Assembly: GCA_024636475.1 (NCBI GenBank)
Contig: JAGXHA010000055.1
Location: 81,818-145,817, forward strand
From: Roseobacter sp.
GTDB taxonomy: Bacteria > Pseudomonadota > Alphaproteobacteria > Rhodobacterales > Rhodobacteraceae
DNA: 64,000 nucleotides
Direction: 5' to 3'
The stretch's first letter is position 1. Each line of letters begins with the position of its first letter. This document shows, one piece after another, positions 44,231 through 44,542 of the stretch. The translations under genes and the position numbers were made by a program. The notes under the pieces were generated by a model. That model saw only the letters and a program-made list of their open reading frames with translations, had not been told where the DNA came from and searched no databases.

Positions 44231-44380
44231 CCTCAAGATTAAGCGCGGCTGTGCCGATGGATTCGGCAGTTTATAAAACTCTGGTGATTTTTCGCGCTGT
44301 CGAAGAAAAAAAGATTTTGCATATCAAAGATCCTGTGCAAGACTTTGTATGAGTTCAACAAATGTAAAGGAGGTGATCCA

Positions 44381-44437
44381 GTGTCTAGAACGGTATTGGA
44401 GCGAGGTGTCGGAACAGCTTGGGAGGATGATCGCTAG
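44381..44437 (+). CDS. Small ORF, 18 aa (MSRTVLERGVGTAWEDDR)
   Basis: GTG start 7 nt after GGAGG of a perfect SD; TAG stop at 44435-44437. Confidence 0.5.
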   Translation: MSRTVLERGVGTAWEDDR

Positions 44438-44512
44438 GGCAGCCCTTGGTGATGTATCAAATCCAGGTGGATCAGTGATCTAACCGATCCTACCTCCGTA
44501 ATCCATTCGATT

Positions 44513-44542
44513 GGGCCGCTCTTTAACGGGGCGGCCCTTTTT
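44513..44542 (+). terminator. Rho-independent terminator
   Basis: GGGCCGCTC-TTTAACG-GGGCGGCCC-TTTTT. Confidence 0.85.

Follow-up and report, generated by a model that had tools for sequence, protein, structure and literature searches.

The closest described relatives of the element considered here are the rre genes of the Alphaproteobacteria (Hahn et al., RNA Biol 14:1353, 2016/17; PMC5711450). One of them, rreR, was named in 2016 and is conserved in the Rhodobacter/Roseobacter clade; its hallmarks are a 16- to 17-nt complement of the 3' end of 16S rRNA, whose final base is at the same time the G of a GTG start codon, and a small open reading frame (sORF) of 18 codons. We examine a stretch of 64,000 nucleotides of Roseobacter sp. 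(assembly GCA_024636475.1, contig JAGXHA010000055.1, positions 81,818 to 145,817 of the forward strand), referred to below as the window, in which an initial annotation, made from the letters alone, had flagged an RNA upstream of the ribosome-rescue gene arfB as an undescribed system. The flagged element is already known: it is a rediscovery of rreR and not a new system. It is very probable that the element is rreR in the form of a stand-alone small mRNA of about 190 nt (approximately 44351-44543 of the window), with its own sigma-70-type promoter and an intrinsic terminator. The parts of the element described below, and arfB, lie on the + strand.

The wet-lab data on this group (co-sedimentation with 30S subunits, weak translation and decay that depends on the start codon) were obtained with rreB, the counterpart in the Bradyrhizobiaceae (PMC5711450). 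The rreB transcript of about 165 nt is made from an RpoD-like promoter and is located predominantly with ribosomes. The RNA binds strongly to, and co-sediments with, the 30S subunit, while rreB-egfp fusions show weak translation; replacing the start codon stabilises the RNA. Overproduction of rreB leaves growth unaffected, which disfavours a simple ribosome sponge. The published experiments on rreR are nuclear magnetic resonance and circular dichroism of the peptide, and the synthesised RreB and RreR peptides are both unstructured (PMC5711450). A search of the available literature found no later functional work on the rre genes.

The element and its 16S complement

The rreR region of the window reads ...CAACAAATGTAAAGGAGGTGATCCAGTGTCTAGAACGG..., and the sequence features that define the gene are all found in it. 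The extended Shine-Dalgarno (SD) sequence AAAGGAGGTGATCCAG (44366-44381) is a perfect 16-nt complement of the 16S rRNA 3' end, and its 3' base (G44381) doubles as the G that opens the GTG start codon (44381-44383) of the sORF MSRTVLERGVGTAWEDDR, which runs for 18 codons (44381-44434) to a TAG stop (44435-44437). Of the 18 residues of the peptide, 14 agree with the Rhodobacterales consensus MSRKVLERGVGTAWEVSC. Among the 33 homologues behind this consensus are named records of Ruegeria, Pseudodonghicola, Seohaeicola and Sulfitobacter; the comparison leaves aside the D. shibae peptide, which was published in a figure only. The gene is single-copy, and the same setting, with a YhhQ-type queuosine-precursor transporter gene upstream and arfB downstream, recurs in genomes of the same genus. 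Inspection of the window finds the whole anatomy of the initial annotation in place: the 16-mer AAAGGAGGTGATCCAG, the stretch GATCCTACCTCC (44486-44497), the 18-codon frame, the terminator and arfB. That a GTG opens the frame is likewise right, with the correction that the codon occupies 44381-44383 and shares one base with the 16-mer.

The 3.41-Mb assembly contains the 16-mer a single time, where base composition would lead one to expect 0.0014 copies. The 16S 3' end was searched for and is absent from this assembly, and the claim of a 16S complement therefore rests on six genomes of the same genus, in which the 3' end CTGGATCACCTCCTTT is found and which all show a 16S end of ...GGGGAACCTGCGGCTGGATCACCTCCTTT. 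In a genome of the same class (G033) the 16S gene goes on with CT; together with the same-genus ends this makes the complementarity exactly 16 nt, as first annotated. We note in passing that the assembly (G000) is rated 99% complete and yet its rRNA operons are evidently unassembled, its own anti-SD being deduced from relatives.

Set beside the published rreR, the element shares the 16-nt complement running into GTG, the 18-codon sORF, the clade, a probable small transcript with a predicted terminator, and a hydrophilic peptide. We find no difference of kind; the genus examined here, whose closest named relatives are Sulfitobacter metagenome-assembled genomes, lies outside the 16 strains in Figure 8 of that paper. 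The comparison with rreB is also close, in the 17-nt extended SD running into GTG, the tiny sORF, a putative RpoD-like promoter and a terminator, and a hairpin that covers the 3' part of the complement and leaves a short 5' toehold. In contrast, the frame of rreB is 14 codons long, its peptide is unrelated, and its genomic neighbours are a tRNA-Gly gene and a gene for a sensor kinase. PMC5711450 makes no mention of three features taken up below, namely the neighbour arfB, the fold-back on CCUCC and the Rfam family.

Structure of the RNA

The 33 Rhodobacterales homologues were aligned and a consensus fold was computed with RNAalifold. It has four parts, namely the hairpin H1, the long-range helix H2, the hairpin H4 and the terminator. 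In this structure 95% of the cells are paired, compared with 38-57% when the partners are slid by 1-3 columns, and two-sided changes are found at 17 pairs, compared with 6.5 +/- 1.7 in shuffled alignments (none of 500 shuffles reaches 17). Hairpin H1 (44377-44400) joins UCCAGU (44377-44382) to AUUGGA (44395-44400) and buries the 3' part of the complement together with GU, the initial two bases of the GUG start, in analogy to the hairpin reported for rreB (PMC5711450); 99% of its cells are paired, with one-sided changes only, and its mean pair probability over the homologues, nearly all of which are predicted to form it, is 0.90. Helix H2 pairs GGUGUCGG (44405-44412) with CCGAUCC (44484-44490), or CCGAYCC in the alignment, with 95.7% of cells paired and both-sided changes at 3 of 7 pairs. 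Hairpin H4 (44432-44451) holds the stop codon within its 5' strand and shows compensatory changes at 7 of 8 pairs: UAG, UGA and UAA each appear with matching partners, and UGG never does. The intrinsic terminator, the only one called by a terminator scanner, has a stem of 10 bp at 44513-44537, of which 8 are G-C, and then the T-run TTTTT at 44538-44542; 97.9% of its cells are paired and compensatory changes are present at 5 of 10 pairs. The check on relatives that the initial annotation had proposed shows the element conserved and H2, H4 and the terminator covarying.

The fold-back of an anti-SD on the SD, also proposed in the initial annotation, stands in part. The 3' strand of H2 is followed by the anti-SD CCUCC (44493-44497), the two together spanning 44484-44497, and YCUCC is kept in all 33 homologues. 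Partition-function calculations give the GGAGG:CCUCC pairing a probability of 0.84-1.0 in 31 of them and of 0.56 in one more, so that it is predicted in 32 of 33, and the probability that the SD core is unpaired is about 0.02. Two further pairings had been put forward for the same segment. Pairing of CCUCC with the GGAGG inside the frame is rejected, its probability being about zero in every homologue. The extension through the GATC beside the anti-SD, which would meet the GAUC of the SD, is rejected as well: GACC stands there in half of the homologues; it suits the G-Y pairs of H2 and would break an A-U pair with the SD, and the segment belongs to H2.

There is a further long-range stem, P1, between GAACGGU (44388-44394, codons 3-5) and UCCAUUC (44502-44508), which corresponds to the closing stem of the Rfam family RF01867 considered below. 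RNAalifold does not predict it. With their own partners the strands give a mean of -5.24 kcal/mol, compared with -3.78 kcal/mol when partners are permuted, and 2 of 5000 permutations do as well, a test that the relatedness of the homologues inflates. As modelled, the 5' strand of P1 sits in the loop of H1, which would make it either an alternative fold or a pseudoknot. A duplex comparison of own and crossed partners over whole 18-nt and 25-nt windows (-10.45 vs -9.68 kcal/mol) is uninformative because the invariant GGAG:CUCC dominates it.

We can now ask what an SD so placed would face. The calculated duplex of the 16-mer with the 16S tail is worth -28.2 kcal/mol, set against +6.9 kcal/mol to open the region; the same calculation for the 5-nt core SD gives +5.2 kcal/mol for opening and -8.7 kcal/mol for the duplex. 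On these computed values the rreR fold would largely mask an ordinary SD, while the 16-nt complement can overcome the fold from a toehold. The energies are compatible with 30S binding of the rreB kind.

Putative promoter and expression

A putative sigma-70-type promoter lies at 44306-44344, with an A-tract at 44306-44312, a -35 box TTGCAT at 44317-44322, a 16-nt spacer and a -10 box AAGACT at 44339-44344. The block is conserved upstream of the gene in loci of the same genus as AAAAAAA..CTTTGCG..N..CCTGTGCAAcGcT, in which, as judged by eye, the A at position 2 and the T at position 6 of the -10 box seem unchanged. A consensus promoter scanner called no promoter upstream of rreR, and the assignment is based on this conservation together with a 5' end mapped in a relative. 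The relative, a strain that shares about 95% identity with L012, a locus of the same genus, has four RNA-seq runs (X32-X35), available as assembled contigs; such contigs tell us of presence and ends, not of depth profiles or read-through ratios. In the contigs of all four runs the Illumina read-2 adapter abuts L012:1496, which gives a sharp and abundant 5' end, spaced from the conserved block as one would expect of a promoter. By homology the transcription start in the window would be 44351, the G of GAGUUCAACAA. Three of the RNA-seq runs leave the 26 nt upstream of the rreR start uncovered; contig depth in X32 is 124 at the 5' part of rreR, compared with 3 upstream and 7 in arfB. A search for RNA-seq of this organism itself returned metatranscriptome contigs or contigs of relatives, which span the conserved part only (44350-44426, some 75 nt).

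Two further observations concern the 5' region of the transcript in the relative. The depth of 124 in X32 belongs to an abundant piece of about 66 nt, L012:1495-1561 (window 44350-44416), which holds the rreR 5' end only and resembles the abundant 5' product of about 60 nt seen for rreB on Northern blots (PMC5711450). More 5' ends are found at L012:1507-1509, 5-7 nt ahead of the 16S complement.

Relation to CC2171 and spread across the class

We turn to the place of the element among known RNA families. A scan of the whole window against Rfam at gathering thresholds gives no match. In an E-value scan of the intergenic region, RF01867 ("caulobacter sRNA CC2171") matches with 35.0 bits (cut-off 75; E 9.5e-6), and the alignment runs over the full length of the model, positions 1-159 of 159, through the 5' motif, the closing stem and the terminator. 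This is the sole match to the model in the whole genome (E 1.3e-5), and a single weak match is likewise present in 23 of 24 other genomes of the genus. Loci of other Rhodobacterales score about 31-41 bits and those of Ruegeria, Mesorhizobium, Sphingomonas and Geminicoccaceae 31-43 bits, while loci of Bosea, Methylobacterium and Phenylobacterium reach 88-108 bits. The 5' end of the RF01867 consensus, cAAcaAucGAAAGGAGGUGAUCCAGUGUCU, almost equals the window sequence, and the likeness is near-identity over CAACAA..AAAGGAGGUGAUCCAGUGUCU; in both, the closing stem begins directly after codon 2 and a terminator follows. The differences are a central domain that cannot be aligned with the RNA of the window, and an annotation as a non-coding sRNA in which the SD and the frame go unmentioned. 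The rre genes and the CC2171 RNAs of RF01867 are one family with diverged branches. The CC2171 RNA has been confirmed by Northern blots in Caulobacter and Methylorubrum (CC2171 literature), and that literature and the rre paper (PMC5711450) do not cite each other. The initial annotation had found no Rfam family to assign and had named a match to a characterised one among the results that would tell against it; such a match is what the scan returns, below threshold.

To see how far the family extends, the 19-nt pattern AAGGAGGTGAYCYRRTGTC was scanned over one genome per prokaryotic species and is found at no fewer than 120 loci (at least 120). Among the matches listed, nearly all are from Alphaproteobacteria, with Rhodobacterales, Sphingomonadales, Caulobacterales, Hyphomicrobiales, Acetobacteraceae, Geminicoccaceae and SAR116 represented; in these matches an ATG or GTG stands at the same offset throughout the class and is followed by a Ser codon TCN. 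The Sphingomonadales are not among the orders listed in PMC5711450. Their branch (L037, L041, L047, L059, L062, L065, L082, L094-L103 and others) has an ATG, 18 codons reading MSHGSAxGSVQF..., an RF01867 score of 41 bits and a conserved neighbour that resembles a branched-chain aminotransferase, as judged from its sequence with no family search. A match at a contig end in a metagenome-assembled genome labelled Cytophagales (L061:7577-7614) has a 5' end identical to that of a Sulfitobacter-type rreR and is probably a mis-binned Roseobacter contig. A few of the matches listed lie outside the Alphaproteobacteria, namely L050 and L054 (Actinomycetota), L051 (Pseudohongiella) and L063 (Planctomycetaceae). 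Two of these stand before long frames (201 and 335 aa), probably ordinary genes whose SD is long; the locus in Pseudohongiella, with a frame of 25 codons, might be an rre-like element in a gammaproteobacterium.

Is the reading frame selected as a frame?

The sORF is 18 codons long in all 33 Rhodobacterales homologues, with neither a premature stop nor an indel. The start is GTG in 32 and ATG in one, and codon 19 is always a stop (TAG in 22, TGA in 6, TAA in 5). In Rhodobacterales and Sphingomonadales alike the frame stays open over 18 codons, and elsewhere over 21-27, compared with 1-273 for the other two frames. The substitutions within it tell a different story, for nucleotide diversity at codon positions 1, 2 and 3 is 0.305, 0.245 and 0.263, and synonymous and non-synonymous alternative codons stand at 16:79, compared with 14:80 and 11:84 in the shifted frames. 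The replacement R3E, seen in three genomes, tracks a compensatory shift in P1 (by eye in the alignment, with the P1 permutation test giving the numbers), and the peptides of different orders are unrelated, though the RNA 5' end is nearly identical. This pattern suggests that selection is visible on the RNA and on the presence of a frame of fixed length, not on the sequence of the peptide.

Several points weigh against our reading of the element as rreR, a stand-alone small mRNA that behaves as rreB does, and are best taken together. The codon substitutions carry no coding signature, and the label of an mRNA consequently rests on the kept start, the kept position of the stop, the lack of indels and the rreB fusions. 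The 30S binding and weak translation of rreR are extrapolated from rreB by analogy. The RNA-seq runs come from the relative and none from this organism. The SD is invariant, which puts the SD:anti-SD pairing beyond the reach of covariation and leaves it supported by predicted folding; moreover, this fold-back competes or forms a pseudoknot with P1, which is itself supported by the permutation test. Finally, the RF01867 score is far under the gathering cut-off.

The alternative that fares best is that the RNA is functionally non-coding, a 30S-docking RNA (a decoy, a sponge or a chaperone of the 16S tail) in which the frame is a by-product. It can draw on the missing third-position excess and on a synonymous ratio like that of shifted frames, on the radical R3E change that follows compensation in P1, on peptides that are unrelated from order to order under a near-identical RNA 5' end, and on the unstructured state of the synthesised peptides (PMC5711450). 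Against it stand a start codon kept as ATG or GTG throughout the class, followed by a Ser codon that varies at its third base only, a length held to 18-27 codons where other frames range from 1 to 273, an in-frame stop that uses all three triplets and is never UGG, and a frame free of indels in 33 of 33 homologues. The rreB-egfp fusions are translated, if weakly, and the harmless overproduction of rreB speaks against the simple sponge in particular (PMC5711450). We regard a purely non-coding role as unlikely. Of the options offered in the initial annotation, a dual-function RNA or small protein and a 30S-binding or ribosome-sponging RNA both come close to the published behaviour of rreB; it is the simple sponge that the overproduction result disfavours.

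One may also hold the opposite, that rreR is an ordinary small-protein gene in which the 18-aa RreR peptide is the effector and the giant SD tunes its synthesis. Conserved small proteins are the interpretation favoured by the authors of PMC5711450, and within Rhodobacterales the 12 N-terminal residues MSRxVLERGVGT are indeed well conserved. The conserved codons, however, overlap H1, P1 and H2, and synonymous sites are as conserved as the rest, while the C-terminal third of the peptide varies freely, no similarity extends across orders and the peptide is unstructured in vitro (PMC5711450). We hold a peptide effector to be quite improbable.

The arfB neighbour

The gene downstream, arfB (44607-45029, 140 aa), encodes the alternative ribosome-rescue factor; its identity, as initially annotated, is secured by the NCBIfam equivalog NF006718 (185.7 bits, cut-off 100) and the RF-1 domain. 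In 32 of 34 Rhodobacterales loci, which comprise at least two families, it comes next after rreR, on the same strand. The flanks (about 1.5 to 7 kb) of some 45 loci from other orders, including Sphingomonadales, Hyphomicrobiales and Caulobacterales, hold no arfB, and the neighbours of rre genes differ in those orders. The spacer between terminator and arfB (44543-44606 in the window) does not exceed 70 nt in 20 of 32 loci (13-64 nt; homologues L010-L106) and 35 nt in seven. Three of the relative's four runs contain unitigs that start at the rreR 5' end, cross the terminator and extend into and past arfB, which shows that some read-through of the terminator exists.

These facts lead to the proposal, also contained in the initial annotation, that in Rhodobacterales rreR acts mainly in cis, as a 5' leader or attenuator of arfB in which engagement of ribosomes at the giant SD and mini-ORF sets read-through. 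The same-strand linkage and the short spacers (20 of 32 loci at 70 nt or less, seven at 35 nt or less) are in its favour, as are the unitigs of the relative, which reach arfB in three of four runs with nothing covered just upstream of rreR in three of four, and the speculation in PMC5711450 that rre-trapped ribosomes need rescue. Against it, the rre genes of other orders have no arfB in their flanks, so that linkage to one regulated gene does not hold across the family, and the genomic context of rre genes is reported to be non-conserved (PMC5711450); the upstream yhhQ-like gene is equally conserved, and the linkage may be plain synteny. A strong terminator stands in between, and in X32 the contig depth falls about 17-fold from the 5' part of rreR to arfB. 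Some 75 nt separate the stop codon from the terminator, and the covarying helices H2, H4 and the terminator include none that competes with the terminator. No conserved antiterminator is seen by eye, in an alignment on which no systematic search was made. One candidate, GGAGCG of codons 7-8 pairing with CGCUCC of the terminator, is not conserved across the homologues and was dropped.

A further difficulty for the leader is that arfB appears, from its upstream sequence, to have its own promoter. Conserved promoter-like boxes stand right before it (CCCTTCACC..N17..GCGATG, TAAGGT, GATACT), and several genomes lack an SD for arfB and place a -10-like box some 7 nt ahead of its ATG, which suggests that these arfB mRNAs are leaderless. 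The argument that a spacer as short as 13-32 nt forces co-transcription of arfB was withdrawn for this reason, the -10-like boxes lying about 7 nt before the ATG and the -35-like boxes overlapping the tail of the terminator. Attenuators of the trpL type offer a comparison. A short frame, a terminator and a downstream gene on the same strand are shared, and read-through occurs; the differences are that no antiterminator overlaps the rreR frame (by eye) and no regulatory codons are present, that the frame ends about 75 nt before the terminator, and that other orders have no conserved downstream gene. The linkage in 32 of 34 loci and the read-through speak for the proposal, the absence of arfB in other orders and the promoter-like boxes against it, and as the main role of rreR a cis leader is improbable.

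Last, because the 16-mer reads as the 16S 3' end in reverse complement, it could be taken for a coincidence or for a decayed 16S gene fragment read on the opposite strand. The probability of this is negligible: 0.0014 matches are expected by chance, similarity to 16S ends after 16 nt, and the minus-strand upstream flank ...CCAATACCGTTCTAGACA differs from 16S helix 45. The conservation and covariation of the full unit of about 190 nt already refute it.

In the wider neighbourhood, an intergenic repeat of about 65 nt lies immediately past the yhhQ-like gene (44169-44236), with the core CTTCTCTGGCTCTNAAATATCCC followed by the hairpin GAGGGACAGCGTCCCTC. It has 13 more partial copies across the assembly and no Rfam match, and metatranscriptome contigs also span 44193-44225 within it.

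Proposed mechanism and significance

The pieces above can be assembled into a model that is patterned on rreB, as whose counterpart we infer that rreR behaves. In the free rreR RNA the core of the SD is predicted to be hidden against the conserved CCUCC near the 3' end, and H1 is predicted to hide what remains of the complement along with most of the start codon. Only the leader and the complement's initial AAA would stay single-stranded and offer a toehold. From there the 16S tail would invade, the 16-bp duplex of about -28 kcal/mol outweighing the roughly +7 kcal/mol of opening, and the invasion would tether the RNA to 30S subunits. Toehold invasion of this kind is the model that the authors proposed for rreB (PMC5711450), and by analogy rreR would show very strong binding, weak translation and a decay that depends on the ribosome engaging the start codon. 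Taken as a whole, the initial annotation was right in its anatomy and in the idea of 30S binding, and mistaken as to novelty and the missing Rfam family.

Found across the class, the rre RNAs pair with the whole free tail of 16S rRNA, and no function or phenotype has been reported for them. The rre genes and the "non-coding" CC2171 RNA of Rfam are the same thing, described in two literatures that are unconnected, and the RF01867 model misses the copies in Rhodobacterales, Sphingomonadales and Mesorhizobium. It is conceivable, though improbable, that rreR and arfB form a functional unit in Rhodobacterales, with rreR as a sensor of, or a generator of substrates for, rescue by ArfB. If so, ribosomes trapped on the giant SD could cause cleavage of rreR and need release by ArfB or tmRNA; alternatively, read-through from the strong rreR promoter would set the level of arfB by the availability of ribosomes. 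Either would be the first physiological role for the rre family, and the conserved order of rreR and arfB, together with the read-through, makes a concrete and cheaply tested hypothesis that ties the rre RNAs to ribosome rescue.

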